From positions 160,001 to 224,000 of IMG/VR virus record IMGVR_UViG_3300028549_001457: DNA of 64,000 nucleotides; one strand, written 5' to 3'. The DNA comes from a virus. Lineage: Duplodnaviria; Caudoviricetes. Both the position numbers and the translations under genes were made by a program. This document shows, piece after piece, positions 18,917-60,377 of the stretch; the first letter of the stretch is position 1; every line of letters begins with the position of its first letter. A model generated the notes under the pieces. The model had not been told where the DNA came from. It searched no databases and saw nothing but the letters and a program-made list of their open reading frames with translations.

Positions 18917-20257
18917 ATGCTTAAGGTTTCCAGGATTCTTTCAACTGACGGTGCATCCAAAGAATCTCTTCTTGAGACTGGCCATACGCTACTTCGTGAA
19001 GATTACGATAGACTCATAAGTGAAATTAAACCTCTTCCCCATGAGGTTTTCTATGTTGGTGATATTGAGATTATTCGTAATCCAACGGGTGCTGACTATA
19101 GAGGTATGGCAAATGAAATCAGATCTGAGATTGGAAATGACTTCTCGGGGGATCCGCTGTTAAGATATACCCTTGATAGTTTCGGCAATCGTTGGATCTG
19201 GAAAGCAACAGAGGGTCTTCACAACCAGATCGAGCCTTTAATCTCTCAAAGGGAGCGTGTAGAGGTCGGTCAGAGTCTAGGGATTCCCTCCCATTCTAGT
19301 TTAATTAGGGATGCCGTGAGAGCCAAGAAGCAGATTCCTTTAGATGTGCAGGCTCAGTATCCAAATTACGCTGAATACTTCCCCAGGACTGCTATGCTTA
19401 AGGTTTCCAAGCTCCTAGAGGACCCCACAGAGTCTCCTGCGTTCCAAGCGTGGTTCGCTGGCTCCAAGGTTGTAGATGCCGCTGGGAAGCCTGCCAGGGT
19501 CTTTCACGGCACTGACAAAAAGTTCAATTCTTTTAATCTCAATAAAACCACGCAGGGTATTATTTGGTTTACCTCTGACAAGGCCTCAGTAGAGGCTGGT
19601 GACGTAGGCGCACAGGGTCGTGGGGTCATTATGGAACTCTACGCCTGCATTAAGAATCCCGCTGGATGGAAAGAATACGATCAGTATGGTTTGGGGGAAT
19701 TAAAAGCTAGGGGTTTTGATGGTGCAATTCTTCCCGAGAAGGATGGCTCCTTTACTGGGTTTGTCTTCCACCCACATCAGCTTAAGTCTGTAGCCAATAA
19801 AGGGAAGTGGGATCCAAAAAGTCATTACTTGACTGCTTCATATATCCCTAGAACGCTCACGAATTTTAAATCAGATGAGACAAACGGTGCAGCCTGTGAC
19901 ATATTCAAAGGCTTTTATCCAAAGTATGAGCTTGGGAAGGCTATTGCGTTAACGCGAAGTGAGTTATCAAAGCGTGGTTTTAATCTTACACCATTAGAAG
20001 ATGTTAAACCACTTTTGGACTCTCTTACACCAGCGCCAGTTAAGCCTGTTGTGGCGCAGCAGCCTCAGTTATTTTCTAATGAAGAGATGCGATACTCATC
20101 TGAGATCGATCCAAATACGCCTTACTATGTAGTAGATATTAAGACGGGCGAGATTGTTGGGAAATACATCTATAAGAATCGCAATAGAGCCCGTGCTTTT
20201 AAGGATCGTAAAGATCAAGAGTATGGCGCTGTGCGGTATGTTTGTAAGCTAGGTTAA
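18917..20257 (+). CDS. MLKVS-tagged multidomain protein with ART-like polyvalent-protein domain
   Basis: starts MLKVSRIL; internal MLKVSKLL; AFQAWFAGSKVVDAAGKPARVFHGT motif. Confidence 0.6.
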   Translation: MLKVSRILSTDGASKESLLETGHTLLREDYDRLISEIKPLPHEVFYVGDIEIIRNPTGADYRGMANEIRSEIGNDFSGDPLLRYTLDSFGNRWIWKATEGLHNQIEPLISQRERVEVGQSLGIPSHSSLIRDAVRAKKQIPLDVQAQYPNYAEYFPRTAMLKVSKLLEDPTESPAFQAWFAGSKVVDAAGKPARVFHGTDKKFNSFNLNKTTQGIIWFTSDKASVEAGDVGAQGRGVIMELYACIKNPAGWKEYDQYGLGELKARGFDGAILPEKDGSFTGFVFHPHQLKSVANKGKWDPKSHYLTASYIPRTLTNFKSDETNGAACDIFKGFYPKYELGKAIALTRSELSKRGFNLTPLEDVKPLLDSLTPAPVKPVVAQQPQLFSNEEMRYSSEIDPNTPYYVVDIKTGEIVGKYIYKNRNRARAFKDRKDQEYGAVRYVCKLG

Positions 20258-20262
20258 TACCT

Positions 20263-20341
20263 GGGAGTGAGTGCCAATGGATGGCAGACGGTCTCCAAAA
20301 CCGTTGTTTTAGTGCAGGTTCGACTCCTGTCTCTCCCGCCA
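20263..20341 (+). tRNA. tRNA-Trp(CCA)
   Basis: acggt-ct cca aa-accgt arm; GCCA end. Confidence 0.85.
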
Positions 20342-20346
20342 TTTAT

Positions 20347-20421
20347 GGTCCCATCGTCCAATGGCCTTGGCCTCCTCCCGATTAGCGGAAGATCACGGTT
20401 CGAGTCCGTGTGGGGCTACCA
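20347..20421 (+). pseudogene. degenerate tRNA, anticodon arm unresolved
   Basis: acceptor, T arm and ACCA intact; anticodon stem mismatched. Confidence 0.55.
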
Positions 20422-20444
20422 ATTATTGTTTGTATTACAGTCAT

Positions 20445-20520
20445 GCGCCCGTAGCTCAATTGGCAGAGCATTCGGCTTTTAACCGAAGGGTTACCAGTTC
20501 AAGTCTGGTCGGGCGCACCA
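20445..20520 (+). tRNA. tRNA-Lys(TTT)
   Basis: canonical cloverleaf. Confidence 0.95.
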
Positions 20521-20523
20521 AAT

Positions 20524-20601
20524 CCTCGCATAGCTCAGTCTGGTATGAGCGAACGCCTGATAAGCGTTAGGTCAGTGGTTCAAATCCACTTGCGAGGACC
20601 A
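20524..20601 (+). tRNA. tRNA-Ile(GAT)
   Basis: canonical cloverleaf. Confidence 0.95.
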
Positions 20602-20706
20602 ATAACTAAGAGGGTCCAGAAGACCCTCTTTATTCCCTACCTTACCACGCCACGCCTTGCATTACCGCACCACGCCGTGTGTAATCTAGATACAAACTAA
20701 TTAATT

Positions 20707-20782
20707 GGGGCCTTAGCTCATATGGGAGAGCGCTTCCTCGGCATGGAAGAGGTGACGGGTTCGACTCCCGTAGGTTCCACCA
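20707..20782 (+). tRNA. tRNA-Ala(GGC)
   Basis: G3:U70; canonical cloverleaf. Confidence 0.9.
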
Positions 20783-20872
20783 ATGACCCGGCTGCGACCC
20801 ACACAAAGGATACAGCGCTATTGCTGCGCTGTATTTCGGGCAGGGAGGCCGGGTTTATAGAATTTCATTTAC

Positions 20873-20948
20873 GGGTCTGACGCCTCAATGGGGAGGCACT
20901 CCCCTCGCACGGGAGATTAGGCGGGTTCGATCCCCGTCAGATCCACCA
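20873..20948 (+). tRNA. tRNA-Ala(CGC)
   Basis: G3:U70; ctccc-ct cgc ac-gggag arm. Confidence 0.85.
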
Positions 20949-20978
20949 TCAATACCCGTATAATTTAAAAGGTGATCC

Positions 20979-21196
20979 ATGATCTCCATAAAGAGTTTAG
21001 TTGATAAAGGTAAAAAGGTCCGTTTTTCTTGGTATCGGGATGGGGATATGTGGTATGTCACAGATTGTGGGTTTGAGTTCCCAGTCCCCTTTCCGAGGTA
21101 GGGACCGCCCTGCTTAAGTCTGAAGACAAAGCCATTCTTTTTATGAGATATATCCGCAAGCATGTGGATCTTTTAGAATCGGCTAAGACTCACTAA
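20979..21196 (+). pseudogene. small phage gene interrupted by a one-base frameshift
   Basis: MISIKSLV...FPVPF hits TAG; the -1 frame continues SEVGTALLKSEDKAILFMRYIRKH to TAA. Confidence 0.5.
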
Positions 21197-21228
21197 AAAT
21201 CTTCCTGTATGTTTATAGGAGGATTTCC

Positions 21229-22152: not shown

Positions 22153-22218
22153 GTAGTATTCATGCAGTTCTTACGAATCAGTTGCCCTGGAGAACTCTAC
22201 CGCAATTATTAATTCCAT

Positions 22219-22293
22219 TGGGATGTAGGCTAATTGGTAAACCGACAGACTCTGAATCTGTCTTTCTCCGTTCAAATCGGAGCATCCCAACCA
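22219..22293 (+). tRNA. tRNA-Gln(CTG)
   Basis: canonical cloverleaf. Confidence 0.9.
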
Positions 22294-22336
22294 AAGTATT
22301 TCCTTTTTAGGAAGTCATCCTAAATTAGACCCTATA

Positions 22337-22525
22337 TTGATGAGGCAGATCATGGATCAAGCTTTGTTAGTAGAGGTTATCAAGTATATAACGGCGTATT
22401 CTGACTCGCTACATGCTGAACGGGTTTCTCTCCTAAAAACTGAGAACATGGGTGGGGTTCAATTAATACGTGAACGAATCAAGCAAGTTGAATATGTTTT
22501 GGAGCAGCTTAAAGCTCTCAAATAA
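22337..22525 (+). CDS. hypothetical protein
   Basis: 62 aa coiled-coil-like ORF. Confidence 0.45.
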   Translation: MMRQIMDQALLVEVIKYITAYSDSLHAERVSLLKTENMGGVQLIRERIKQVEYVLEQLKALK

Positions 22526-22563
22526 CTTTGTTGTATCTCTAATAAGCTGTTTGTGGAGATATT

Positions 22564-22860: not shown

Positions 22861-22886
22861 ATTTTAGATTCTTTATGTAATACCTT

Positions 22887-22982: not shown

Positions 22983-22984
22983 AA

Positions 22985-23025: not shown

Positions 23026-23036
23026 TCTAAAGGTCT

Positions 23037-23498
23037 CTAGGTTGCTGAACCCTGTTCATGTTTGACAATGGCTTCTATGAGTGCCCGGAGCACTCCATTC
23101 TTGTATGCGAAATATGGGACGTTGTTCCAGTCATCTTTTTCAGCACGGGCTAACATTTCAGTCATATAGGATTTAGCCTTAGCCTTTATCTGCGAGAGTC
23201 TAAGAATACCAAAACCAGGGTCATCTACTGACCCTGTCTTGGTCTCCTGCTTCTTAAGTTTCCTGTTAATTGCATTTTCACAAGTCTTACGGGTTCTTTC
23301 TCCGTAAACCTTCATTGCATCACACTTATAGCCTGCGCCCAGGAGATCAATACGGTATTGCTTACCGTTTATTGCAGTGAACATATCCGAACTAATGGTT
23401 AATTTACTTGTTCTGATCATTCTAGTATTCCTCTCGGCCATACCCCCGGCCTTCGTCTCTATCGGCGCACCTGTCGCACTGGTAGCCTCTGCGAACAT
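23037..23498 (-). CDS. hypothetical protein (true start may be downstream)
   Basis: ORF track; minus-strand pair with next gene. Confidence 0.55.
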   Translation of the reverse strand: MFAEATSATGAPIETKAGGMAERNTRMIRTSKLTISSDMFTAINGKQYRIDLLGAGYKCDAMKVYGERTRKTCENAINRKLKKQETKTGSVDDPGFGILRLSQIKAKAKSYMTEMLARAEKDDWNNVPYFAYKNGVLRALIEAIVKHEQGSAT

Positions 23499-23892: not shown

Positions 23893-23934
23893 ACACACCT
23901 CTTAACTAAAGAGTTCTTTTAAAAAGGGGTCTTC

Positions 23935-24663: not shown

Positions 24664-24664
24664 T

Positions 24665-25039
24665 ATGTTAAAAGTTTCCAGACTTTTATCCCATATAGCT
24701 CTACGCGATCCGTCCTGGATTAACGGTCCTGATACTGGGTCTGGCTGGGAATACCCAACTGAGAACTTTACAGCGGATGTGGCCATCTTGCTACCAGATG
24801 GGAGTTCTAAAGAATTCCCACTTGCAGGTACTTGTTGGTATACTCCAGATGAAGATTTTGAGTATACGTTAGACACCCCCTCCTTATCCATATACAATGA
24901 GCTTGGGAAAACAGTTTGGGAAGAGAATCTATGTGACGAACAGATTCGAGAACAGGTAGACCTCCCTAGTTGGGAATCGCAGTTTGCGTCAGCTCATGAA
25001 CCCGATTATGATGATGCTGGCACTTGGGGGGATTTCTAA
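24665..25039 (+). CDS. MLKVS-tagged acidic hypothetical protein
   Basis: ATG 24665 after AGAGG; MLKVSRLLS. Confidence 0.65.
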   Translation: MLKVSRLLSHIALRDPSWINGPDTGSGWEYPTENFTADVAILLPDGSSKEFPLAGTCWYTPDEDFEYTLDTPSLSIYNELGKTVWEENLCDEQIREQVDLPSWESQFASAHEPDYDDAGTWGDF

Positions 25040-27438: not shown

Positions 27439-28293
27439 ATGCTAAAAGTGTCTAAGTTGTTAACTTCAGATTATAGGGGGTGGAAATCTTGGATTTTTGG
27501 GGAATACTGGCTACACGAAAGTGGCGAAGCTGAGTTTGCTGATGGGGATACTGGGGATCGTGGGCACGAGCAGATTGCCGTGGAGAATATCTTTAACCAC
27601 TTCTCAACCCAGCTTGAAAATGCTTTCATTAAATACTTTCAAAAAGTAAAGGAAAAATACCCCGAGGAATACCCTGGGGCTATCGAAGGTTATAGCAACT
27701 TCTTTAGAGGAACTGATCCGGATGATTTTACGTTAGATAATGCTGAAATGTCGGATCTTTACTATAATTATCATATCCCCGTGACTGTTGGGGAGGAAGC
27801 TTTTCCGCCTGGGCAGTGGGACGAGTTTAACAAGGATATCCGGCTGTTTTACTCTAAGTATTTTAAAGCCGCCCATGTGATTAATAATAACTTTAGTGTT
27901 TGGCAGTTAACTCCTAGGATGATAAACGCCATGCAGGATTTCGTTCTTGAGAAAGCAGATGAAAACGGACTAGACGCAGAAAACCCTCTCCCAGGTTCTA
28001 TATGCGTTGATGAAATTAGCACAAATAGGTATGCCGAACTGGATACCACAGAATTCCTGATGGCAAAACACGCTAATCAAATATTCCAAGTTGTGGGTAA
28101 GACTGCTGCAATTAGAAAAACTCCCGCACAGAAACAAGCCCTGGATGCCTATAATAGGGCGGTAGCTAACCAGGACAGATATATGGGGTCCGTTTTTGTA
28201 ACCCCACAGGGGTCCAAAGAACATGATCTTGCAGTTGAAAAAGCATACCAAGCCTGTATAGCTCTAGGGATGACCTACGAACATGGTCTATAG
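27439..28293 (+). CDS. MLKVS-tagged hypothetical protein
   Basis: MLKVSKLLT; GEYWL...FADGDTGDRGHEQIA. Confidence 0.7.
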   Translation: MLKVSKLLTSDYRGWKSWIFGEYWLHESGEAEFADGDTGDRGHEQIAVENIFNHFSTQLENAFIKYFQKVKEKYPEEYPGAIEGYSNFFRGTDPDDFTLDNAEMSDLYYNYHIPVTVGEEAFPPGQWDEFNKDIRLFYSKYFKAAHVINNNFSVWQLTPRMINAMQDFVLEKADENGLDAENPLPGSICVDEISTNRYAELDTTEFLMAKHANQIFQVVGKTAAIRKTPAQKQALDAYNRAVANQDRYMGSVFVTPQGSKEHDLAVEKAYQACIALGMTYEHGL

Positions 28294-31229: not shown

Positions 31230-32375
31230 ATGCTAAAGGTTTCACGATTGTTAAGAGCTACAACCCCGGAGATATCCTCTAAGTTTCCTCCTCAATTAAT
31301 TACCTTACTTCGTAAGCTGAATTCTTTTGGTGAGTTTTATCTCGTTGGGGGCTGCATCCGTGATGCGCTTCTTGGTAGAACGCCTAAAGACTTTGATGTT
31401 ATGGTTGTGGCTCCCTCCCCGCAAGAGCTTGAAAAGATCCTCCCCGTGAAGCAAGTCGGAGCCGCCTTTCCTGTATATCTATATGATACTGAGGACCCAG
31501 AGTTAGGCATTATTGAATTCGCCTATGCCCGTAAAGAGACAAAAACAGGGATTGGGTATAAGGGTTTTGATTTTGAGGTCGTTTCAGATGTTAAAGAGGA
31601 CCTAGCTAGACGCGATCTAACTATAAATGCTCTCGCCTGGAACCCTACTGCAGGACTTGTATCTTTTGATGATAGGGCTATGGATGATGTGCAGACTAAT
31701 ACTCTTAGGCATGTCACGGAAGCTTTTGCGGAAGACCCTCTTCGTGTATTGAGAGCAGCTAGATTTTCAGCACAACTCCCAGGTGATTGGAAAGTGGACC
31801 CCGAGACTATCAAATTAATGAATAGTCTCCAGGGTGAGTTGCCTTCTTTAGCATTGGATAGGATTCGAATTGAGCTAGAAAAATCTCTCAGGGCAGCAAA
31901 ACCAGGGAACTTCTTTCAGGTACTACATCAAGCTGATTGCATGAGTTATTGGTTCCCAGAGTTGGAGTCAAATCTCCCAGCGTTAATTAATTTGGTAAAT
32001 AAGTCTGCAAAATCAGTTAGCTTAATTGAGATGTATTGCCTATTAGCCCAGACAATGCAATCTAATGGTGACGTAAAGACTTTTTGTAAACGGCTTTCTC
32101 TTGCATGGGATCGGGAAATGGCGCTGTGGCGTAATATCCACGCCTGCTCTTTTACCTCCCCTAAAGATTTCTTGATGGTGTATAAAGGTGGGCGTCAAGG
32201 AAGGCTCCCATTTGATAGTATTTACAGACTTTTAGAGATTAATGGGGATACTTCAAGCCAAACCTCCCTTAAGAAAGCGGTGGCTGCTCTTCAAAATCTA
32301 AAGCTCCAAGAGGTCCCACCGTCCGAAATTCCTGCTTTGATGCTTAAAACAGTTTCTTCAGCGTTAGGGATGTGA
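31230..32375 (+). CDS. cca: CCA-adding tRNA nucleotidyltransferase, MLKVS-tagged
   Basis: YLVGGCIRDALLG..PKDFD, FAYARKE, EDLARRDLTINA, EDPLRVLRAARF, ERI-like DRIRIELEK. Confidence 0.9.
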   Translation: MLKVSRLLRATTPEISSKFPPQLITLLRKLNSFGEFYLVGGCIRDALLGRTPKDFDVMVVAPSPQELEKILPVKQVGAAFPVYLYDTEDPELGIIEFAYARKETKTGIGYKGFDFEVVSDVKEDLARRDLTINALAWNPTAGLVSFDDRAMDDVQTNTLRHVTEAFAEDPLRVLRAARFSAQLPGDWKVDPETIKLMNSLQGELPSLALDRIRIELEKSLRAAKPGNFFQVLHQADCMSYWFPELESNLPALINLVNKSAKSVSLIEMYCLLAQTMQSNGDVKTFCKRLSLAWDREMALWRNIHACSFTSPKDFLMVYKGGRQGRLPFDSIYRLLEINGDTSSQTSLKKAVAALQNLKLQEVPPSEIPALMLKTVSSALGM

Positions 32376-32836: not shown

Positions 32837-32910
32837 GCCGATATAGCTCAATGGTAGAGTTCTGGTTTCGTAAACCAGAGATATGGGTTCAATTCCCTTT
32901 ATCGGCTCCA
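32837..32910 (+). tRNA. tRNA-Thr(CGT)
   Basis: ctggt-tt cgt aa-accag arm; TCCA end. Confidence 0.85.
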
Positions 32911-32933
32911 CTTTCCTTTAGGTAGGACAGGTT

Positions 32934-33401
32934 ATGCTAAAAGTATCTAGAATTCTATCTGCCACAGTCTTCTATCATGGGAGGGGCCTAACCCGCCCAT
33001 ATACTGGCAAGTATATATTCTTGACCGCAGATCCGGCCTATGCTTCCGGGTATTCAGATGGTAAGACAATCCAAGTCTATAAGCTTAAAATTCATGAAAA
33101 TGAATTGTTTTCACTGCGAAAGGCTGGGGATCTATCTGCTTTAACCACTGCCATGAACAACCCGGAAGCCACCCAATCTATAATGAAAGCCTCTTCTCAT
33201 GGTGAAATGGACTGGGCAGCTTACTCTAATATAGCTAGTGATGACCATGATGATGGTGAAAGTCTTTTAAAATCTTTAGGGTTTAAAGGGATTTGGTTAA
33301 GCGAACGCACCGGGATTAACTCAATCCTTCTTTTCGACCAAAATGATGCTGATTATGTTAAAGATATTCCTGCAGTTTTTAGAAAGCCAATGGACACATA
33401 G
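32934..33401 (+). CDS. MLKVS-tagged protein, possible ART-like fold
   Basis: MLKVSRILSA then VFYHG...IFLT.D..YA..Y. Confidence 0.6.
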   Translation: MLKVSRILSATVFYHGRGLTRPYTGKYIFLTADPAYASGYSDGKTIQVYKLKIHENELFSLRKAGDLSALTTAMNNPEATQSIMKASSHGEMDWAAYSNIASDDHDDGESLLKSLGFKGIWLSERTGINSILLFDQNDADYVKDIPAVFRKPMDT

Positions 33402-33860: not shown

Positions 33861-34043
33861 ATGCTGAGAGTCTCGCAGATACTTGTAGCGTATATTGCAG
33901 AAGTGCCTGGGCACACAGATAGTAAAGGTGAAGCTGCCCCCTTTGTTATTCGCTCTCACGAGACGGATAAGATTTTAAGTAGCCACCCCACAAGGGAAGA
34001 GGCTAAAAAACATCTCAAGCAGATGCATATATTTGGGGACTGA
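33861..34043 (+). CDS. MLRVS-tagged small protein
   Basis: MLRVSQILVA; GK-like DKILSSHPTREEAKKHLKQMH motif. Confidence 0.6.
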   Translation: MLRVSQILVAYIAEVPGHTDSKGEAAPFVIRSHETDKILSSHPTREEAKKHLKQMHIFGD

Positions 34044-44190: not shown

Positions 44191-45657
44191 ATGGCTCGTT
44201 TCGCTAAGACGGAAGTCTCTACTGTTAACACTCCTACTACTGTTAACTTGGCTGGAGGGGAAGCTTTTGCTATGTCCCCTAAGCTTGAGTTTGCTTCGGC
44301 GCTGTTGACTTGCTTCACCACGGATACTTATTACAAGTCCGGTGAGGGTCAGGTTAGTCGCATTGCCGATTTGTCCAAGACTGTTGACCCTTTGTTTGCA
44401 GCAAAGGCAGCTATCTTTACTCGTAAGAAGAATGGCCTCCGGTCTGTAAGCCACATTGTGGCCGGGGAACTCTCTCAGCGTGTGGATATCAAGGGCTTGG
44501 AGTGGACTCGTAAGTTCTACGAGCGGGTTGTCAATCGTCCTGATGACATCACCGAGACTCTTGCATATATCAAGTCCACGAGTGGTCAGAACCTCCGTAA
44601 GTTGAGCAACGCTATGAAGAAGGGTTTCGGCGCGGCTCTCGGTAAGTTTGATTCTTATCAGCTTGCCAAGTATCGTGGAGAGGGTAAGGATCTGAATCTG
44701 TATGATGCGGTCAATTTGCTGCACCCTAAGGCTACTGCTGCATTGACCGAGCTGATGACCGGGACTCTTAAGCCAGCCGAAACTTGGGAGACCAAGCTTA
44801 CTCAGGCTGGTCAGAAGGCATCTTCGGATACCGAGAAGGCCGAAATGAAGGGTCAGGCATGGCGTGAGCTTTTGACTGCTAACAAGCTGGGCTTCATGGC
44901 TTGCATCCGCAATCTTCGCAACATTGCGGAACAGGCTCCTGATGTAATGCCTTTGGCTCTGGAGTTCATTACGGACCCTCATCAGGTTAAGAAGTCCCTG
45001 ATGTTCCCCTTCCAGATTTATACTGCTACCGAAGCAATTCGTGGCACTAAGGCTGATACCCGTGAGGTTAAGCTGGCTCTGGAAAAGGCGATGGAGTTGA
45101 GCCTTGTCAATGTTCCCAAGTTTTCAGGTAAGACCCTGATTGCTGTTGATACCAGTGGATCTATGGCTGGTCGCCCCGTTCAGATTGCTGCGTTGTTTGC
45201 GGCTGTGCTGTTTAAGTCTAACGATGCAGACGTTCTGCGTTTTGCTTCGGGCGCTACCTACCTGGACCTCCACCCAGCGGATAGTCTTACCACGCTCACC
45301 GAGAAGATTCACCGCGCTTCCGGGGGTGGGACCGATTTCCACAGTATCTTCGAAACTGCTAATAAGGTCTATGACCGAATTATCATCCTTTCGGACATGC
45401 AAGCTTGGGTAACTCGTCAGGTTAGTTCTTATTGCGCTGGGACCCCTCATGCCGCACATAAGGCTTACAAGCAGAAATTTGGAGCGGATCCTCGGATCTT
45501 CTCTTTCGATCTGACGGGTCAGGGGACCCTCCAGTTCCCCGAGAGCAAGGTTTTCGCTTTGGCGGGTTTTAGTGACGCCGTTTTGAAGACCATGCAGAAC
45601 CTCGAAATGGACCCTAATGCCCTCGTGCATGAAATCGAGTCTATTAGCTTGACCTGA
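44191..45657 (+). CDS. rsr: Ro60/Rsr RNA-binding protein (TROVE plus vWA domains)
   Basis: NLAGGEAF, DPLFAAKAAIFTR...LRSVSH, YQLAKY, TWET, IRNLRN, PF; DTSGSM, GGGTDF, IILSDMQ. Confidence 0.9.
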   Translation: MARFAKTEVSTVNTPTTVNLAGGEAFAMSPKLEFASALLTCFTTDTYYKSGEGQVSRIADLSKTVDPLFAAKAAIFTRKKNGLRSVSHIVAGELSQRVDIKGLEWTRKFYERVVNRPDDITETLAYIKSTSGQNLRKLSNAMKKGFGAALGKFDSYQLAKYRGEGKDLNLYDAVNLLHPKATAALTELMTGTLKPAETWETKLTQAGQKASSDTEKAEMKGQAWRELLTANKLGFMACIRNLRNIAEQAPDVMPLALEFITDPHQVKKSLMFPFQIYTATEAIRGTKADTREVKLALEKAMELSLVNVPKFSGKTLIAVDTSGSMAGRPVQIAALFAAVLFKSNDADVLRFASGATYLDLHPADSLTTLTEKIHRASGGGTDFHSIFETANKVYDRIIILSDMQAWVTRQVSSYCAGTPHAAHKAYKQKFGADPRIFSFDLTGQGTLQFPESKVFALAGFSDAVLKTMQNLEMDPNALVHEIESISLT

Positions 45658-46258: not shown

Positions 46259-47740
46259 ATGGCAATTAAGATTAGAAGTATCAAATATCAAGTTACTGCT
46301 GCGGTGGCTACGTCAGCTATTGCCTCAGCCTGCGTAACTCTCCTGTCATTTTATGGGTATACCTATTATACGGTTCGAAAGAATCTAATCCAAGATACCC
46401 AGTCTCAAGCCTCCGTTACAGTTAAAAACTTAGAGGCCTCGCTTATCTTTAACGATACTAAAGATGCCACGGACACACTATCCGCACTAAGTGAAAACCC
46501 AAGTATAAAGAGAGCTATTATTTATAAGAATGGGGCCGTATTTGCTAAGTTCCCTGAAGATCTTCATGTTCAGGATGGCCTCATAAACCACAAACCATAC
46601 TATTTTGACAAACACCTTGAAACTTGCACAAGTATACGTTTAGGTGAACGAGATAAAGCTGAACTACATCTTTCAGTATCCCTAGATACACTTAATTCAC
46701 GCCTAAACCTAGCGATGTTAACCCTGTTAAGTTTATCCGTAGTCTCCACTTTTATAGCTAGCTATTTGGCATACAGAGCTGCTAAAGCTATGATCACACC
46801 TATTCTTGTTTTAGCGGAGACTGCAAACTACGTTAAAACTACACAAGATTATAGTATTAGAGTTCCTGAGTCCAGGCACTCCCACGAAGTTACCCTTCTT
46901 GAGGTATCTTGCAATAATCTATTTGAAGAACTCCAAAGAAGAGAGACACATATTTCTAGTCAAAGAGGTCTTCTAGAGACGCTTGTGCAAGAGAGGACCG
47001 TTGAGTTAGAAGCTGCCAAACTAAAAGCTGAATTTGCGTCTAAAACTAAGTCATCCTTCCTTGCAAATATGAGTCATGAACTAAGAACCCCATTAACATC
47101 TATTATGATGTATTCTGAAATTGTTAAAGAAGACCTTGAATCTGGTAGTATTACACAGTCAAGTATTAAGGACGTAGATAAGGTCATTGCAGCTAGTGAG
47201 CACCTGCTTAGTCTAATTGATGATATTTTAGATCTAGCTAAAGTGGAGACAGGTAAGTTTGAACTTTACCTTGAAGATACCACCTTAGGGGATCTTCTGG
47301 AAGAAGTTACGAGTCAGGCTACTGTTTTAATGGAAGTAAATGATAACACGTTTACAGTTCATAATAACGCAACACCAAATTTGAGTTTATATACAGATGG
47401 TAAGCGAGTTAAGCAAATACTGTTAAATTTATTAAGCAATGCTGCAAAGTTTACTCATTCTGGATCAGTATCGCTGGTAATCCAAGATGTTGATAGTTCA
47501 ATACTCTTTACAGTATTGGATACAGGGATAGGGATGAGTGAAGAACAAGCTATACGTGTATGGGGTGAATTTGAGCAGGCTGACCAAGCTACTTCAAAGA
47601 AATTTGGGGGGACTGGGTTAGGGCTCTCTTTAACTAAAAAATTCACAGAAATGCTTGGTGGATCCATTGTTTTACAATCTACTTTAACGGTAGGCTCCTC
47701 GTTTACCGTGGCGCTCCCTCTCAGGAGTGCTTATGTGTAA
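46259..47740 (+). CDS. membrane sensor histidine kinase (periplasmic sensor, HAMP, HisKA, HATPase)
   Basis: two TM helices; FLANMSHELRTPL, QILLNLLSNAAKFT, DTGIG, GGTGLGL. Confidence 0.95.
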   Translation: MAIKIRSIKYQVTAAVATSAIASACVTLLSFYGYTYYTVRKNLIQDTQSQASVTVKNLEASLIFNDTKDATDTLSALSENPSIKRAIIYKNGAVFAKFPEDLHVQDGLINHKPYYFDKHLETCTSIRLGERDKAELHLSVSLDTLNSRLNLAMLTLLSLSVVSTFIASYLAYRAAKAMITPILVLAETANYVKTTQDYSIRVPESRHSHEVTLLEVSCNNLFEELQRRETHISSQRGLLETLVQERTVELEAAKLKAEFASKTKSSFLANMSHELRTPLTSIMMYSEIVKEDLESGSITQSSIKDVDKVIAASEHLLSLIDDILDLAKVETGKFELYLEDTTLGDLLEEVTSQATVLMEVNDNTFTVHNNATPNLSLYTDGKRVKQILLNLLSNAAKFTHSGSVSLVIQDVDSSILFTVLDTGIGMSEEQAIRVWGEFEQADQATSKKFGGTGLGLSLTKKFTEMLGGSIVLQSTLTVGSSFTVALPLRSAYV

Positions 47741-53461: not shown

Positions 53462-54490
53462 TTGCTGTATTATCATATACATGAGTGGAGTTCGACTATG
53501 GCGGATGCTATTTCTTTTGACGAGAGTTTCTGGGTTGAAGAAATAGACCCCACAGACCCCGAATCGCTAAGTTCAGTTTCTGTGGATTATACACCAGCTT
53601 TCAATTTAGGGGTGTGTTTTAAAGACAACTTTGAGGTTTACTTAAAGTATCTAGCATTGTTGGATCCCCTTGAGGCAGACCTCCTTATCCTTTATTACTA
53701 TTGTGATAAGAAGGTTAAGGAAATAGCCAAGATTCTGAAGACTACACCTGTTAAAGTGTCAGGACTCATTAGTCAGGCTGAACAGCGTCTAGCTCTGTTA
53801 TTGCACATTAATTTACTCCTTACAACATCTGTTTTACAAGAGATAAACAAAGTAATAACTGCTGAGTATGATAGAGTTATCTTCAGGACCTTTCTGCGTG
53901 AGGTATCCCGCAGGCGCACCTCCCATGTTTTGGGATTGACATTTCACCAAGTTAGTTCCTCAATTAAACGTATCGTGGAAACTCTCTCTAAGAGTGAGTT
54001 GTCGCTTGAATTAAGGGATCTTATTAAGATTATATCCCCTAGTGTGGCATCCCCCCGAGAAACTCGCCAATTAGACCCTTCGGAGCGGGTTTGTGTTTTT
54101 GATGTTATCAGTTGCCCTCAACAAGTCTACGCTATTAGCACCCTCGCAAATCCTAAATTATCCTTGGGTAACTTTGGGGATTCCAGCACATCTCTTCTCC
54201 AAGAGTTCTCTGAGTTAGCTAACCAAGCATCCTATTTTTCAGTTAATCAAGCTATCCTGGCGCATCAACTTGGGGACTCTTCCGTAGATCTATGGGATTA
54301 CCTAGTGCCATCATTCATATCTAGACTTATTAGTGCCGATCAATTTGCGTATGTAACGCTCACAGAATCCGTTGAAATCCCTATTAATCCAGCTAAAACT
54401 GTTGTTTCTATCGTTAAGAAATCCCCTCCTCAAAAGGCCAGAAAAATAACCGTATCAAGACACTCCAAGGAAGTTTCCGCAGTAGTATAG
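53462..54490 (+). CDS. sigma-70 region 4-like HTH protein
   Basis: LDPLEADLLILYYYCDKKVKEIAKILKTTPVKVSGLISQAEQRL plus a second similar HTH. Confidence 0.6.
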   Translation: MLYYHIHEWSSTMADAISFDESFWVEEIDPTDPESLSSVSVDYTPAFNLGVCFKDNFEVYLKYLALLDPLEADLLILYYYCDKKVKEIAKILKTTPVKVSGLISQAEQRLALLLHINLLLTTSVLQEINKVITAEYDRVIFRTFLREVSRRRTSHVLGLTFHQVSSSIKRIVETLSKSELSLELRDLIKIISPSVASPRETRQLDPSERVCVFDVISCPQQVYAISTLANPKLSLGNFGDSSTSLLQEFSELANQASYFSVNQAILAHQLGDSSVDLWDYLVPSFISRLISADQFAYVTLTESVEIPINPAKTVVSIVKKSPPQKARKITVSRHSKEVSAVV

Positions 54491-55022: not shown

Positions 55023-58000
55023 ATGAGTAAAACAGAAGTAGTTCTCGCTTTTTCCCAACTTCCTGAGGACTGCCAGAACCCATTCAAGAGCCTCTACCCT
55101 GAGATTGTCCCTGAGACCCCTGTAGCTATTGTTATAGACCCAGAAGGTCGATCTCTTGACTTTACCGTGGGTGCTCGTGAAATGACCTTCGGCCCTTCAA
55201 ATGAGAACTACTCAGTATTCTTACAGGGTTGCTATAGGATGCTATTTTCAGCAGCCCAAAAACAGGGTTGGATGAATCAGTTTCCCACAGACGGTCCAGC
55301 AGCTACGGTTGCTGAAGAGGCCGCTCCCGTGGTAGCGTCCTCCCCTGCTCCACCAGCCCCTAAGCAGGCTTCTAATGTCGATATGGAAGCTAGGGTTGCC
55401 GCTCTGACAGCCAAACTTGCGAGTCTACCTAAGAGTCCCGAGGTAGAATCTATGAAGGCTAAACTAGCCTCTGTGTCAGGTAAGGTTAAAACTGCCTCCT
55501 CTGACCCCAGCCCCAAACCAGAGGACAAACTGTATGTTCGCCCTCTTGATTTTGTTAATACGCTACGAGATGACTGGAACTCCTGGGCCGATGAGCATGG
55601 TGGGCAGGAGTCTATGAATAAGCAGGGGGGAATTGATATCCTCGCAAAACATCAGGCTTCCAAGGAAGCCTCTGAGCAATTTGGGTTTACCCATGAAGCT
55701 TCTGCCCCTTGGGTAAACCCTAAGGGTCTACTAGTAGCTGATGATAGCAAGCTGGTAGCACAACTTCGAGTCAGGACCGCTGGCCTTACCACAGACTCCA
55801 ACGTTAACGGTGAGGCTCAGCTAATGGGGACTACCGAAAATCCCGTGCAAGATGTCGCAAACGGGTCCGTAAAGGAGGTGGCTACCGCGAAGTCTGCGAG
55901 TAGCCTGGACTTTCGACCTGACGTCACTACTTCTTCGGTAAAAAAAGCATACTCACCCGTAATAGCTCAGGCTGTCAATAAGTATGTTGCTGAACATGCT
56001 GGGTCCGAGGTTACTCTCCCCGAGTTAAAACAGCAGGTTAAAAGCATTACGTCCTCCTGGAAGGAAATGCTACACTACATGCAGGATTTCAGTCTCTTAA
56101 AGGCTGTTGGAACTGATAGGGTTGTTATTCTTAATCGTGACTTGGTGGCCGACTTACAAGTTCTTCCCACTAAAATGGCCGCTGCCAAGACCGCAGAGAG
56201 TTTTTATGCTAGAGTTTGGGTCAAACCGGATGGATCTCTTGTTGAAGTTAAAGGTTCTGTTAATGATGGGGTTTATCATTCCACCGTTGCCTTAGAACAG
56301 GGGTTTAATACTCAGGAAGATGCTTTTCTGGCTGGCTGGGTTAGGGCTGGATTCGTGTTTGGAACCAATGGATACATGGAGTTTAATGCAGATAAACTGC
56401 GTGATGCTCAAGTTCATGCGCTTCAAACTCATTTTAGTTTGAATGGTGCCACTGAGGTGACATTAGAAGACTACAGAGGTGGGACTTCTAGTGTATACAT
56501 TAAGGATTTCTATGAAATGAATGCACAAGCCTGTGTTAAGGAAGTTACCCGAAGAAATGCGTATGCGTCCGTGAAAAAAGCCCGTAACTGTAATGCCGAG
56601 CCTGTCACGACTACATTTGGAACTTTCCCAATTCGTATAGATTGTCCCGCTGGGTGCAAGGTCTCAGGGGTAGACCCCCAGGGGAATGCCTGGGAGAGCA
56701 TTCAGAGTGTTGATTATGGTGAGATCATCGATACCGTTGGTGGAGACGGTGAAGCCATTGACGTCTTCCTAGGGCCTGATACTAACGCACCATGGGTATT
56801 TATTGTAAACCAGACTAAATATGATGATTCCCAGGATAAGGTTGTCCCCGATGAAATTAAAGTTGGGTTAGGCTTCTGGTCATTAGAAGATGCTAGGGAT
56901 GCCTATTTAAGCATGTTTGAGAATGGATGGACTAACTATGACTCAAACATAGTCACTACCTCCACTGATTCACTGCGTGAGTGGCTTGAGTCTACCCATG
57001 GGGCTAAGAATGTAACTGCGGATGACTTTACGCTTACCACAGGAACCCCTGAAGTAGTTCAACCAACTCCTGTTGTGGCTCCGGAAGTTTTCAGAAGTAT
57101 CAGCAATGCCCCTATTACTTCTTACGTGGCCTCCGTTGATCATGACATCCCTGCACCTCATCAGGCTGATGTTCTCACCATGTTCCAAGACCCCTCTGTT
57201 AGGCCCATGGATGCTACTTCGGCTAAGGTTGCCACCTTGTTTGCTAAACAGACTGTGGATCATACCAGAGGTCATCAGGCCAGTTTTGATGCCCATACTC
57301 GCGCCTCAATTGAATCTGCTGTTAAGGTTTCCGTGGAGTCTCATAAGGCTAATTTGACTCCTGCTCGGACTTCTTCTAGTCGGATTGCTGAGATTATTAC
57401 CGCTGAACTCAATCTAGGGTATAGCCCTGAAGAGTGCGATCATAGGGCTTCTTTGGTGAGCTACTTTGGGTCCGATCAAAAGACCTTTAGGCGCACCCTG
57501 GCTAAATTGGCTGGTATTGCAGGGAATCTGGTGTTGCAGCCTAACTTCATTAAGAATTCCTGCACGGTTACCCATGCCGCTTTAAATGGTCAGCATAAAG
57601 CTACTAGGTCCAAGACCCCCTATCATGCAGTGGCTTCTACATCTGCTTGCGCTGGATGCACCAATTATAAGTGCAATTCACAAGGTGTTAAACATTGTGC
57701 TCTTTACAGTAAGCCCATAGTTGCGTCTGTTGAAGAAATGCATAAATTAGCCAATTCTGTCTGGGGTGTTTCCCAGGAAGCTATGACTCCTACTGGATTG
57801 AGTAAGAGGGCCGCTGCACACCTTGCGTCAAAGAATTCTACGGCTTCCAAGTCTCCACTCCCCACTATAACGGCTGCAGTTGATTTTGGGGATGGGGCAG
57901 AGAGTCGCCCAAGCCCTTCTTTGAAGGCATCGATTCCAACAGCTTCAGTAGCACCCAAGACATATATTGTAGCGGCTTTATCACAGGGTCAGACCCCCGC

Positions 58001-58952
58001 TAGAATTGCCGAAATCCTAGACAGATCTACTGTCCATAGTGCTTCGTTTAAGGAAGCTGCCATGGCTGAGTTGAACGCTCAGAAGGGTCTAATGGGCTTC
58101 CTAACTGTTATGCCTCATTTTGCTGGGTCGTGCAGTGTCACTCATGGGAAACATTTTGCGGCAAATGCTAAGGATAAACGCAAGTTTCCATTCCATTCTG
58201 TAACCAAGATTGCTGCTTGCTCAAAGTGTCAGAATTGCGTTAAGAATGTCTCCGGTGGGGAGCGTTGCTCTCTTTATGGAAAACCTTTGGTATCCACCCT
58301 AGCTGATATGAAGCTGGTTGCAGCGACTGCCTTCCCTGCAATGATTCCCAAGTTGGCCGCTGCCACTAAGGAAGATTTAGCCAAGGAAGCTCTTCCGTAT
58401 CTAGCTCAGAGTATTGGTGTCTCCGAGGATCACCCCTCCCTCAAGGCTTTTAACATGCCTTCTGAAAAGGTTGAACCAGAGGAAACGGAACTAGAGAATG
58501 CTGCGGTAGAAACTGAGAAGGATGTTGTTGAGGGCACTTCCAAGAATGTAATGGATATTGCAATGGAAGCCTCCAAACCTAAGACTCAGGATCTCGAAGC
58601 CATTACAACCAAGATTAAGGAAGCTTTCGTAGCTAAGAAGACCCCACAGCAAGTCTATGACAGTATGAAGATAGCTTTCAGAGCTGCCGATAGGCCTCAA
58701 CTGCAACGTTTAGTTAGTAGAATTGCTGGGCAGACCAATCTAACTCAGAGTCAATCATCTGCAAATGGTGAAGTCTATACCGAAATAACTACAAATGACA
58801 ATGTTTTTGGTGATACCCTTAAGCAATTAGCCGAAGAGCAAATAGCTAAAGAACAGCCCACCTTGACTGATGGGATCGTAGATATCAATGAAATGTCGGT
58901 TCAGTCAGATACCCCTGAAGAATTCGGCATCCTGCAAGATTACATTAGGTAG
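55023..58952 (+). CDS. large multidomain protein with inorganic pyrophosphatase-like domain and two Cys-rich repeats
   Basis: DYGEI.DTVGGDGEAIDVFLGP...DEIKV.LGF; repeated CxxCxxC...CxLYxKP. Confidence 0.65.
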   Translation: MSKTEVVLAFSQLPEDCQNPFKSLYPEIVPETPVAIVIDPEGRSLDFTVGAREMTFGPSNENYSVFLQGCYRMLFSAAQKQGWMNQFPTDGPAATVAEEAAPVVASSPAPPAPKQASNVDMEARVAALTAKLASLPKSPEVESMKAKLASVSGKVKTASSDPSPKPEDKLYVRPLDFVNTLRDDWNSWADEHGGQESMNKQGGIDILAKHQASKEASEQFGFTHEASAPWVNPKGLLVADDSKLVAQLRVRTAGLTTDSNVNGEAQLMGTTENPVQDVANGSVKEVATAKSASSLDFRPDVTTSSVKKAYSPVIAQAVNKYVAEHAGSEVTLPELKQQVKSITSSWKEMLHYMQDFSLLKAVGTDRVVILNRDLVADLQVLPTKMAAAKTAESFYARVWVKPDGSLVEVKGSVNDGVYHSTVALEQGFNTQEDAFLAGWVRAGFVFGTNGYMEFNADKLRDAQVHALQTHFSLNGATEVTLEDYRGGTSSVYIKDFYEMNAQACVKEVTRRNAYASVKKARNCNAEPVTTTFGTFPIRIDCPAGCKVSGVDPQGNAWESIQSVDYGEIIDTVGGDGEAIDVFLGPDTNAPWVFIVNQTKYDDSQDKVVPDEIKVGLGFWSLEDARDAYLSMFENGWTNYDSNIVTTSTDSLREWLESTHGAKNVTADDFTLTTGTPEVVQPTPVVAPEVFRSISNAPITSYVASVDHDIPAPHQADVLTMFQDPSVRPMDATSAKVATLFAKQTVDHTRGHQASFDAHTRASIESAVKVSVESHKANLTPARTSSSRIAEIITAELNLGYSPEECDHRASLVSYFGSDQKTFRRTLAKLAGIAGNLVLQPNFIKNSCTVTHAALNGQHKATRSKTPYHAVASTSACAGCTNYKCNSQGVKHCALYSKPIVASVEEMHKLANSVWGVSQEAMTPTGLSKRAAAHLASKNSTASKSPLPTITAAVDFGDGAESRPSPSLKASIPTASVAPKTYIVAALSQGQTPARIAEILDRSTVHSASFKEAAMAELNAQKGLMGFLTVMPHFAGSCSVTHGKHFAANAKDKRKFPFHSVTKIAACSKCQNCVKNVSGGERCSLYGKPLVSTLADMKLVAATAFPAMIPKLAAATKEDLAKEALPYLAQSIGVSEDHPSLKAFNMPSEKVEPEETELENAAVETEKDVVEGTSKNVMDIAMEASKPKTQDLEAITTKIKEAFVAKKTPQQVYDSMKIAFRAADRPQLQRLVSRIAGQTNLTQSQSSANGEVYTEITTNDNVFGDTLKQLAEEQIAKEQPTLTDGIVDINEMSVQSDTPEEFGILQDYIR

Positions 58953-58970
58953 CCCTCCGTAAGGACTCAA

Positions 58971-59690
58971 ATGGATGACCCGGCTCTTCCTCAATCGTCT
59001 CTCTCTAGAGTGCTGCCATTAGCTTTAAACGGCCCCTCTAGAGAGAGCTATTCTTCTGCCCCAGGAGTTTCTTTATCTGGGATACCCCCAGCTTCCTCAC
59101 AACCCCCCGAGGTTCATACAAAGTATGCCCTTCCGGATATTGTTGGGTTCCAAGCGTTATTAGATGACCCGAGTGCTGATATCAAGGATCTCCATGCTCA
59201 GTTAACTCGAATGATGGGGGTAATGGCCCTCATTCTAATGCAAGAAGCTGCTGCTAAGGCCCCGTCTTTTAATAGAGCCCAGACGGGATCCAGAGCGGTG
59301 GAAGCTCTTCGCGCTCTATCCATGACGCTGCAAGAGCGTGAAAAATCCCTCTATAAAGATCGGCTCGACTTTGATAGCCCTCGCTTGCAAGCCTTTATTG
59401 ATGCTCTTTGGGACCTCATTGAGAATGTCATGAAGGATTGTGGTTTCTCGGAAGATCAAGTTAATAATTTCTTTCTCGTTCTGCAAAGTAGACTACCTGC
59501 ATTTGAAGAGAAACAAAAGAAGTTTGTTAACTCAGTTTCTTTTAATGCTTCAAAACACGGTGCGGGTATTGAGCGTTCGGAAGATGCAAATCTCATGAAT
59601 AAAAAACGCGAAAAGGCTATTAAGCATGAAGACCTTGAAGGCGTTGCCATTAAGATTCCGCCCCTCCCCACCGCCGATGATCACGCCTAG
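58971..59690 (+). CDS. hypothetical helical protein
   Basis: 239 aa ORF upstream of ligase and terminase. Confidence 0.6.
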   Translation: MDDPALPQSSLSRVLPLALNGPSRESYSSAPGVSLSGIPPASSQPPEVHTKYALPDIVGFQALLDDPSADIKDLHAQLTRMMGVMALILMQEAAAKAPSFNRAQTGSRAVEALRALSMTLQEREKSLYKDRLDFDSPRLQAFIDALWDLIENVMKDCGFSEDQVNNFFLVLQSRLPAFEEKQKKFVNSVSFNASKHGAGIERSEDANLMNKKREKAIKHEDLEGVAIKIPPLPTADDHA

Positions 59691-59699
59691 GTAAAGTGT

Positions 59700-60377
59700 A
59701 TGTTAAGAGTGTCTCGCCTGTTTTTAGCTGATTCTAACCCAAGATATAAGTATCCTAGAACGTTTCATATTCCGGGGAGCCCTGGGGCTACCTCAGATGA
59801 TAAAATATTAAGTAGTATGGATCATTTTAAAGGACAAGAGGTCGTAATAACTGAGAAAATGGATGGGGAAAATACAACCATTTACCCTGACTATTTGCAT
59901 TCTCGATCACTAGATAGTAATAACCATCCCTCAAGGAATTGGGTGAAACGACTCCAGAGTGAGATTGGTTATAAGATACCTGATGGAATGCGGATCTGTG
60001 GGGAGAATGTTTTCGCCCAGCATTCACTCGGGTATGATAAGCTTCCCAGTTATTTCTTAGTGTTTAGTGTATGGGAGGGAGATACGTGTTTGTCCTGGGA
60101 TGACACGGTTCTAATTTGCAATGAACTCAATTTAAAAACAGTTCCAATTCTCTATAAAGGACCCTTTGTGGAGGATAACCTAGAGAAGAAATTTTTCTCG
60201 GGGACCTCTTCTTTTGGGGGTGGGCAGGAGGGTTTTGTAGTTAGGTTGGCTAGGGCGTTTAACCGTGCGGAATTCTCAAAAGCACTCGCTAAATGGGTGC
60301 GGCCAAATCATGTCCAAACTGAGACACACTGGACACAACAGCCAATAGTTCCTAATAAGCTAGAAGAGGGGGACTAG
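59700..60377 (+). CDS. ATP-dependent RNA ligase (Rnl2-like), MLRVS-tagged
   Basis: KYPRTFH, EKMDGEN motif I, GEN, FLVF, EGFVVR, KWVR. Confidence 0.85.
   Translation: MLRVSRLFLADSNPRYKYPRTFHIPGSPGATSDDKILSSMDHFKGQEVVITEKMDGENTTIYPDYLHSRSLDSNNHPSRNWVKRLQSEIGYKIPDGMRICGENVFAQHSLGYDKLPSYFLVFSVWEGDTCLSWDDTVLICNELNLKTVPILYKGPFVEDNLEKKFFSGTSSFGGGQEGFVVRLARAFNRAEFSKALAKWVRPNHVQTETHWTQQPIVPNKLEEGD

Follow-up and report, generated by a model that had tools for sequence, protein, structure and literature searches.

The capsid-targeting sequence (CTS) of the T4 internal proteins IPI, IPII and IPIII was reportedly described by Mullaney and Black in 1996. The T4 internal proteins are diverse except for this conserved CTS (PMC3012670). 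In phage P1, the first 30 residues of DarB are enough to bring the enzyme, and a reporter protein, into the capsid (PMC9024508). Polyvalent proteins, found in phages and conjugative elements, join 2–15 domains per chain (Iyer et al. 2017; PMC5512222). ART-PolyVal and InPase are among these domains, and polyvalent proteins are predicted to be packaged and injected (PMC5512222).

The DNA analysed here is a 64,000-nucleotide stretch (the window) of the 278,785-bp genome of an uncultured phage from microbial mats. A first-pass annotation had noted an N-terminal tag common to eight ORFs of the window, repeated inside one of them, and had proposed that it targets tRNA-repair cargo to the capsid. Every coordinate of the eight starts holds (Table 1). 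The internal copy at 19394 was confirmed as residue 160 of the 18917 ORF, and residue 10 is indeed Ala at four of the nine sites (31230, 32934, 33861 and 59700). The pattern M-[LI]-[KR]-[VI]-S-[RKQ]-[IL]-[LF] is present at all nine.

Across the whole phage there are 15 tagged starts, 13 exact matches to the pattern and two variants (Table 1). Exact matches were absent from 20 shuffles, and the reversed pattern had none, compared with 13 for the forward pattern. In a PSSM scan of 84,609 proteome positions 14 sites scored at least 17.4 bits, all of them Met-preceded, while the runner-up reached 12.7 bits. The consensus is MLKVSR[IL]L, with Ser5 and Arg/Lys6 highly conserved, followed by small residues: by column composition positions 9–12 are mostly S, A, T, G or D, and position 10 is Ala in about half of the tags. 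The codons vary freely (TCN or AGC for Ser, CTN or TTA for Leu), pairwise codon identity being 0.36 at third positions versus 0.71 at positions 1 and 2. Since third codon positions are near random and the amino acids are kept, selection acts at the level of the peptide.

Table 1. Tagged genes and neighbouring features (window positions, except for the two rows marked as genome positions)
Position	Strand	Feature	Length	N-terminal tag	Remarks
18917..20257	+	three-module ORF	446 aa		starts 30 nt past tRNA-Gly
23027..23065	+	probable relic of a tagged gene, Met-less	12 codons	SLKVSRLLNPVHV, then stop	just past tRNA-Ser; 22.6 bits
23422..23892	-	tagged acidic protein	156 aa	MLKISKILSG	weak zinc-ribbon match
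24665..25039	+	tagged protein	124 aa	MLKVSRLLSH	no family match
27439..28293	+	tagged acidic protein	284 aa	MLKVSKLLTS	no assigned family
31230..32375	+	tagged CCA-adding/poly(A) polymerase-family enzyme	381 aa	MLKVSRLLRA	PF01743, PF12627
32934..33401	+	tagged protein	155 aa	MLKVSRILSA, then TVFYHG	starts 24 nt past tRNA-Thr
33861..34043	+	tagged protein	60 aa	MLRVSQILVA	
55023..58952	+	untagged polyvalent-type protein, InPase domain	1,309 aa		PF18823, E 6e-24
59700..60377	+	tagged RNA ligase	225 aa	MLRVSRLFLA	PF09414, E 5e-35
60425..63718	+	large terminase subunit, helicase-like insert	1,097 aa		
genome 16970		tag variant		MIHSARIL	
genome 18168		tag variant		MIHVSRLL	

In the source phage and its relatives together, 41 distinct Met-preceded tag sites were found. 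Tag copies number about 46 in all, 41 of them at Met1; five are internal, at the module starts of fused ORFs, and one of these five has no Met. Matches that lack Met are weak, with two exceptions: LSKVSRLL, which opens a module in the relative L216 and scores 15.7 bits, and SLKVSRLL (22.6 bits), in the 12-codon frame at window position 23027, which from its sequence is probably the relic of a tagged gene. When the tag was removed and the remaining sequences were compared by BLAST, at least 35 distinct tagged proteins of the source phage and its relatives fell into 25 families, so the earlier statement that the downstream domains are unrelated is correct. The tag is thus real, selected at the peptide level and portable; it stands nearly always at Met1 and is carried by at least 25 unrelated families.

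Most tagged proteins consist of a single module (57–446 aa), and a few have two or three. In the ORF at 18917 the first module comprises the tag MLKVSRILST and 159 aa; the second opens with a tag of its own, MLKVSKLLED (19394–19423), followed by an ART-PolyVal domain (PF18760, residues 187–251, E 9e-15 in Pfam); the third, C-terminal module of 52 aa has a stand-alone tagged version of 62 aa in the relative L131. Two tagged proteins had been called ART-like at first pass. This assignment stands for 18917/19394, which Pfam identifies as ART-PolyVal; the protein at 32934 has no Pfam match at E ≤ 0.01, so that its label derives only from the motif ..VFYHG..

The cargo of the source phage and its relatives includes ART-PolyVal (several times), HNH, ParB-C-like and SprT-like proteins, RNA ligase and CCA enzyme, as well as strongly acidic small proteins and many proteins without a known family. 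The 24665 protein is very acidic (pI 4.05, net charge −19) and DNA-mimic-like. No charge bias was seen in the tagged proteins as a set, and no recognised structural or replication protein is among them. The CCA enzyme and the RNA ligase are tagged as originally reported, and Pfam confirms both families. The description of the cargo as tRNA repair does not extend further, most tagged proteins being no RNA-repair enzymes. Moreover, the CCA-enzyme orthologue of a close relative, L004 (57% identity), is untagged; a tRNA-repair cargo is therefore no constant feature of the system.

Most tagged genes are located in a mosaic, fast-shuffling island where they are interleaved with tRNA genes. A Ro60/TROVE protein and many tRNA genes are encoded near tagged genes. 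Some tagged genes adjoin virion genes: the RNA ligase gene is placed between the genes of the polyvalent-type protein, which also matches DarB-like and minor-head PHROGs, and of the large terminase, a marker of the virion-gene neighbourhood. Upstream of the head module two tagged genes are found at 10–13 kb and two more at 18–29 kb. A promoter common to tagged and virion genes was looked for, and two upstream motifs were rejected. U-rich TCTTTTA with a Shine-Dalgarno (SD) motif precedes 63 of 350 genes, the majority without a tag, and represents a general terminator-plus-RBS arrangement; GTATCTA was found on many replication genes and not on the tagged set.

In close relatives, whose capsid proteins are 73–95% identical to that of the source phage, up to 11 of 38 neighbouring genes carry the tag. 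In the RNA ligase it forms an extension of about 12 residues ahead of the conserved core. More than 100 RNA-ligase homologues are untagged and start at KYPRTFH, and the only tagged one is a 77%-identical homologue. The L004 orthologue of the 27439 protein starts with MLKVAKVW, a decayed copy of the tag. Judged from these orthologues, the tag, with its roughly 12 residues, is a portable addition that is naturally gained and lost.

A terminase-based search of IMG/VR found no relatives, and a strict back-translated DNA pattern produced 42 single matches in IMG/VR, each of them out of frame or within a short ORF and together no more than chance would give. With the same DNA pattern, two plausible relatives, L121 and L131, were present among the matches listed from JGI metagenomes. 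The tag was not found in Tunturi_5, the nearest cultured phage, where ART-PolyVal domains reside within ORFs of 1,279–1,501 aa (polyvalent proteins). Searchable literature contained no match to the tag strings.

The phage encodes a head-maturation (prohead) protease (phrog_18299, genome 29910–31115), a scaffold-like protein that is acidic and of low complexity (genome 31147–32553), a 291-aa capsid protein of the HK97 type (phrog_2522, genome 33246–34121) and a portal (genome 224269–226965); PF03420 (gp21) and PF07068 (gp23) had no match in it. Capsid proteins of the clade are untagged and start with MAGLSS. No high-scoring tag copy was revealed by the PSSM scan in the scaffold, the capsid protein or the portal; therefore the tag is not a general prohead-protease site. 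The scaffold C-terminus, QQVTRLSALLKDF, was examined as a mimic of the tag and discarded as a chance resemblance, ranking 168th by PSSM. The 531-aa protein starting with MIHVSRLL is the best, non-significant phmmer match of the Tunturi_5 'major head protein'; it was dismissed as the capsid protein, which is encoded at the position given above. A complex prediction, run without controls, combined the capsid protein (97-row alignment) with the scaffold-like protein and residues 1–40 of the 18917 protein; its score of 0.00 was taken as evidence neither of binding nor of its absence. By column composition, the tag contains neither a conserved Glu nor another obvious protease site. As for a Sec or Tat signal, there is no hydrophobic core, and the sequence past residue 8 is polar or leads straight into the enzyme core.

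Like the T4 CTS, the tag is a peptide of about ten residues at the extreme N-terminus, is portable and occurs on otherwise diverse, fast-evolving proteins. T4 CTS cargo consists of counter-defence or host-takeover proteins, the putative character of the tagged set as well, and T4 and the tagged phage each have, besides a prohead protease, a separate scaffold core. Unlike the CTS, the tag is basic, has no L/I-x-E cleavage site and shows no sequence similarity to it. The phage itself is not T4-like, as it lacks the gp21 and gp23 families and its capsid protein, of 291 aa, is of the HK97 type. At least 25 families are tagged, many more than carry the CTS and with RNA ligase and CCA enzyme included, and packaging and cleavage are putative here, in contrast to T4. 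The large anti-restriction enzyme DarB of P1 has an N-terminal loading signal, of which the tag would be a counterpart; in P1, however, a single protein is known to bear the signal and its loading requires other Dar proteins in a fixed order, whereas here one short motif is common to many proteins.

With polyvalent proteins the tagged set shares a domain repertoire of ART-PolyVal, InPase, ParB-like, zincin/SprT-like and nuclease domains, PF18760 being on tagged proteins and InPase (PF18823) on the untagged 1,309-aa neighbour beside the terminase. Polyvalent proteins join 2–15 disparate domains, whereas tagged proteins are mostly single small ones, each with its own tag; the few two- or three-module fusions have a tag at each module start. 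The Prp protease cleaves an N-terminal extension off ribosomal protein L27 and off the capsid and scaffold proteins of staphylococcal phage 80alpha. Its substrates have in common with the tagged proteins a short shared N-terminal peptide that opens with ML[KR] and has a small residue near position 10. They differ in that the tag is missing from structural proteins and the motif departs past residue 3, and in that no Prp gene (PF04327) was found in the genome of this phage. The huge-phage N-terminal tags MNRYDIALGKKPPP and MNWYK... have a different sequence and belong to a different phage lineage from MLKVSR[IL]L.

By analogy, we tentatively read MLKVSR[IL]L as a capsid-loading tag that is analogous to the T4 CTS and not homologous with it, and we give this reading somewhat less than an even chance. 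The first-pass interpretation as a whole is thus partly supported, its capsid targeting of the tagged proteins being an analogy. The tag would be a lineage-specific N-terminal address, read as a peptide by one common partner, of which the likeliest is the assembling procapsid with its acidic scaffold core, shell interior or portal. Tagged proteins would be placed in the head and be delivered along with the DNA, as are T4 internal proteins or P1 DarB. Tagging would replace covalent fusion in this clade, polyvalent domains becoming small separate tagged genes. We infer the existence of a receptor, its place in the procapsid and the injection of the cargo. We counted in favour of capsid loading the overlap of the cargo with polyvalent-protein domains, predicted to be packaged and injected, and the presence of a protease, a scaffold-like protein and an HK97-type capsid protein. 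Also counted in its favour were the peptide-level selection, portability and N-terminal position of the tag, its absence from Tunturi_5 and from recognised structural and replication proteins, the T4 and P1 precedents and the tagged genes beside virion genes. Counted against it were the dissimilarity to the T4 CTS, the lack of a T4-type cleavage site, of gp21/gp23 families, of a high-scoring tag copy in scaffold, capsid protein or portal and of a charge bias, and the location of most tagged genes in the tRNA island and not among virion genes. The internal tags were counted against a strict free-N-terminus signal, and they are explained by loss of stop codons between abutting genes.

A wider proposal, which we hold with more reserve, is that this huge-phage clade uses a non-T4 N-terminal peptide as a general loading address for an exchangeable arsenal of pre-made enzymes. 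Any gene gaining eight codons would then join the arsenal delivered with the DNA. Such an arsenal would include ADP-ribosyltransferases, nucleases, RNA ligase, CCA-adding enzyme and DNA-mimic-like proteins, and would be a modular alternative to polyvalent fusions.

The tag may instead be a recognition or processing site of one protease that activates or releases modules, of a modifying enzyme acting near Ser5, or of a common inhibitor or escort chaperone that silences toxic effectors, and serve regulation without packaging. The high conservation of Ser5 and Arg/Lys6 agrees with this, tags recur at module boundaries in multi-module ORFs (once Met-less) as a polyprotein cleavage site would, and peptidase processing has been proposed for polyvalent proteins (PMC5512222). 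We nevertheless consider processing unlikely. As many as 41 of the approximately 46 copies are at Met1, and loss of a stop codon adjoining an in-frame tag ATG, as in the TAG-ATG at 18914–18919, explains internal copies. Prp was not found in the phage, its sole radical-SAM gene (genome 231164–232435) lies 10.8 kb or more away from the nearest tagged gene, and the Pfam lists of the relatives' loci around tagged genes contain no radical-SAM. N-terminal degrons read by AAA+ proteases are established in bacteria. The tag could be a degron or timing signal through which a host or phage protease or adaptor removes or limits potentially toxic early effectors at a defined stage; the cargo enzymes could damage the phage's own nucleic acids, and gain and loss of the tag among orthologues fit a regulatory add-on. 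However, no resemblance to known degron classes was shown, and a generic degron would not need the same eight residues to be kept so strictly in 25 families, which makes this decidedly improbable.

We give even less credence to localisation elsewhere in the infected cell, be it the membrane, the pole, a replication or translation factory or a Ro60/Y-RNA particle. The tag is basic and, taken as a helix, moderately amphipathic (muH 0.44–0.61), the Ro60/TROVE and tRNA genes are nearby, and several cargoes act on RNA. Yet 27% of same-residue shuffles reach equal amphipathicity, so physical chemistry alone cannot account for the fixed order of residues and a generic amphipathic-helix explanation is weak. 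Eight residues are also few for membrane binding, the tag has no hydrophobic core such as secretion signals have, and it is not obvious why HNH and ART cargo should go to one place with RNA ligase. It is very improbable that the shared start is functionless, as a by-product of cassette recombination, of duplication of 5′ gene ends or of selection on translation initiation. The mosaic, fast-shuffling setting of the tagged genes and the U-rich stretch and SD that many of them share upstream would suit such an origin, but this upstream motif is mostly on untagged genes and the tag is kept across capsid-protein divergence at the 73% level. The codon data, with near-random third positions, retained amino acids and both TCN and AGC serines, already largely refute it.

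The tag looks like an undescribed sorting tag that, by analogy, most plausibly serves head loading of ready-made enzymes. If loading is true, capsid-targeting peptides would be recurrent and lineage-specific in huge phages and no peculiarity of T4 and P1, and polyvalent fusion and peptide tagging would be interchangeable routes of effector delivery. Injected arsenals could then hold RNA-repair enzymes that pre-empt tRNA-cleaving defences. The eight-residue tag would also be a compact handle that makes every tagged protein a counter-defence candidate, and might be used for putting foreign proteins into capsids. If the tag serves processing, degradation or localisation instead, it would define a regulon of at least 25 unrelated families with one protein-level reader.

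The IMG/VR phage record (278,785 bp, about 95% complete), of which the window spans bases 160,001–224,000, represents a phage whose DNA is contained in microbial-mat metagenomes; the window encodes 45 tRNAs and a tmRNA. Each of the nine sites named in the first-pass annotation was found to encode M-L-[KR]-[VI]-S-[RKQ]-[IL]-[LF]. A search of the whole genome with the tag pattern returned 13 exact copies; 2 further starts, at genome 18168 (MIHVSRLL) and 16970 (MIHSARIL), are variants. No exact copies were present in 20 shuffles, and the reversed pattern gave 0 matches, compared to 13 for the true one. When 84,609 proteome positions were scored with a PSSM built from the tags, 14 sites reached at least 17.4 bits, the next best reaching 12.7, and all 14 were preceded by Met. 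De novo clustering of N-termini revealed the tag as the sole cluster, with 12 members. Residues 1–8 are near-invariant (M, mostly L with some I, mostly K with some R, V, S with a rare A, mostly R with some K, I or L, and finally L), positions 9–12 are small or polar, and about half of the copies have Ala at position 10. The enzyme core follows directly: the RNA ligase reads MLRVSRLFLADSNPR-YKYPRTFH, and in the 155-aa protein the tag runs straight into the core, MLKVSRILSAT-VFYHG. At window 23027–23065 (plus strand), directly 3′ of tRNA-Ser, a short frame SLKVSRLLNPVHV is followed by a stop; it looks like the remnant of a tagged gene from which the Met and most of the remainder have been lost.

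The tag is an element of the peptide and not of DNA or RNA, since its codons are free to differ (Ser is TCC, TCT, TCA, TCG or AGC; Leu is CTN or TTA; Arg is AGA, CGA, CGC or AGG) and third positions are the least conserved, with pairwise nucleotide identity of 0.36 compared to 0.71 at first and second positions. A U-rich stretch, in most cases the tail end of a hairpin terminator, and a Shine-Dalgarno sequence are found upstream of 63 of the 350 genes, and this arrangement is therefore no marker of the tagged set. Several tagged genes begin 24–30 nt past a tRNA 3′ end (window 18887–18917 and 32910–32934; 17365 and 19042 in relative L004), and processing of tRNA–mRNA co-transcripts probably yields their mRNAs. 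Across the genome, about 20 genes are preceded, 10–30 nt before the start, by a (CC)GTATCTA motif (e.g., at window 6403, 15685, 29784 and 34071), a candidate −10 element for a class of promoters specific to the phage. Many of these genes function in replication or recombination (helicases, a UvsX-like gene); tagged genes mostly do not have the motif.

The first-pass annotation considered the downstream domains unrelated, and this holds: 35 distinct tagged proteins fall into 25 BLAST families once the tag is removed. Several are strongly acidic (the 24665 product has a pI of 4.05 and a net charge of −19). None of the recognised structural or replication proteins is tagged, and the capsid proteins of the clade start with MAGLSS. 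Of the RNA-ligase homologues inspected (120), a single one, the nearest at 77% identity, bears the tag, as MLKVARLL; the others start 1–8 residues ahead of KYPRTFH. The CCA-enzyme orthologue of L004 (57% identity) starts with MRPKTAELD and is untagged, and its orthologue of the 27439 product starts with a decayed tag, MLKVAKVW. These comparisons show that the tag is a portable peptide, and we infer a putative common partner that reads it.

Tagged cargo, modules of the 446-aa ORF and head genes
Feature	Location	Remarks
ART-PolyVal cargo		several times
RNA ligase cargo	window 59700	PF09414
CCA/poly(A) polymerase cargo	window 31230	
HNH endonuclease cargo		
ParB-C-like cargo		
SprT-like cargo		weak
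'GWxLPDG' module cargo		recurrent
446-aa ORF, module 1	window 18917	tag + 159 aa
446-aa ORF, module 2		tag + ART-PolyVal
446-aa ORF, module 3		52-aa tail; in relative L131 it forms a separate 62-aa protein with its own tag (MVKVSKIIL)
Head-maturation protease	genome 29910–31115	phrog_18299
Scaffold-like protein	genome 31147–32553	acidic, low-complexity, 16% D+E
156-aa protein	between scaffold and capsid genes	position only
291-aa capsid protein	genome 33246–34121	phrog_2522, E 3e-43
Portal	genome 224269–226965	

The clade was defined by capsid proteins 73–95% identical to that of the phage. Seven tags occur within 20 kb of the SESF01 assembly, 11 of 38 genes are tagged in a 20-kb island around the RNA ligase of BUCK21 scaffolds, and the most distant relative (73%-identity capsid protein) has at least one tag, MIKASRLLTGA. 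Outside the clade, an IMG/VR search gave chance matches only. No tag was found in the 485-kb phage LR745208 or in Tunturiibacter phage Tunturi_5, the nearest cultured phage (portal 37% identical), and half of the Tunturi_5 genome contained no analogous shared N-terminus. In the BUCK21 relative, three adjoining genes (L216:10469–12985; 283, 308 and 199 aa) share the N-terminus M[KQ][AS]IS[NK][ST]QLK[VT]A, which is unlike the tag; they may be paralogues or bearers of a second shared leader. At L003:311–5636 of the same relative, a few kilobases away from the island of tagged genes, a Cas3-like helicase gene (751 aa) adjoins that of a 958-aa protein whose Cas12f-like TNB domain is weak.

The head genes do not include the T4 families gp21 and gp23 or a Prp protease, which are absent from the phage. 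The terminase gene, located in the window (60425–63718), encodes 1,097 aa, of which residues ~156–604 resemble phage DNA helicases, some annotated as intein-containing; the stretch could be an inserted domain or intein-like element. Directly upstream of the protease gene, a 625-aa protein (genome 27951–29828, outside the window; L196:3951–5828) has a signal-like start and ends in ..YIKLKYGF. By eye it looks like an outer-membrane beta-barrel of the TonB-dependent-receptor type, odd for a head module; its sole match is PHROG 5687, of unknown function. A PAS-PAS-GGDEF diguanylate cyclase gene lies directly 3′ of the portal gene (genome 226965–228365; L051:2965–4365), and further genes encode a CHASE8 histidine kinase and a sigma-70 region 4 protein (window 46259–47740 and 53462–54490), which together give the phage an unusually rich complement of signalling genes. 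At window 44191–45657, a vWA-containing Ro60/TROVE protein (PF05731, PF25045) was confirmed, in agreement with first-stage remarks on Y-RNA-like elements of the tRNA island.

Wherever a short N-terminal peptide is documented as common to diverse phage proteins, it is a capsid-targeting signal (T4 CTS, PMC3012670; P1 DarB, PMC9024508). For this reason we tentatively favor loading of tagged proteins into the capsid, which the first-pass annotation proposed by reasonable analogy; it is our guess at the best-supported reading, at somewhat less than even probability. It is further favored because the cargo fits an injected-effector repertoire, because every recognisable cargo acts in the cytoplasm, which also excludes export, and because the same domains are delivered in fused form by a sister lineage. 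In Tunturi_5, matching ART-PolyVal modules are embedded in ORFs of 1,279–1,501 aa and start with ..TPAFKAWFG.SKVVD, as does the module behind the internal tag at 19394. Polyvalent proteins, for which Iyer et al. predict packaging and injection (PMC5512222), have ART-PolyVal and InPase among their signature domains; an untagged 1,309-aa InPase protein adjoins the tagged RNA ligase and the terminase. Several points count against capsid loading: the tRNA island houses most of the tagged genes, the CCA enzyme is able to do without the tag, and the tag does not resemble the T4 CTS and shows no evident cleavage site.

A processing, modification or escort site is a less probable role. Across the phage and its relatives 41 of about 46 copies start at Met1, and the internal ones, about 5, all stand at module starts: a 446-aa ORF of the BUCK21 relative has three tag-headed modules (the third tag, LSKVSRLL, has no Met), a 332-aa ORF of that relative has two, and L218 contributes one further internal copy. 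Internal tags may conceivably be processing sites, but the simplest reading is stop-codon loss between genes, since an in-frame stop often abuts the tag ATG (TAG-ATG at 18914–18919) or sits 15 nt upstream, and its loss yields such tag-headed fusions. The radical-SAM enzyme nearest to tagged genes is 10.8 kb off, not adjacent. A degron is unlikely, and a signal for some other localisation slightly more so; the tag as a helix is moderately amphipathic, but shuffling its residues gives equal amphipathicity in 27% of cases. That the tag is a non-functional by-product is very improbable. Tag strings were not found in the searchable literature, and by analogy the tag would be a CTS-like address tag of previously undescribed sequence, with a real chance of belonging to a broader principle of protein sorting that is as yet undescribed in huge phages.
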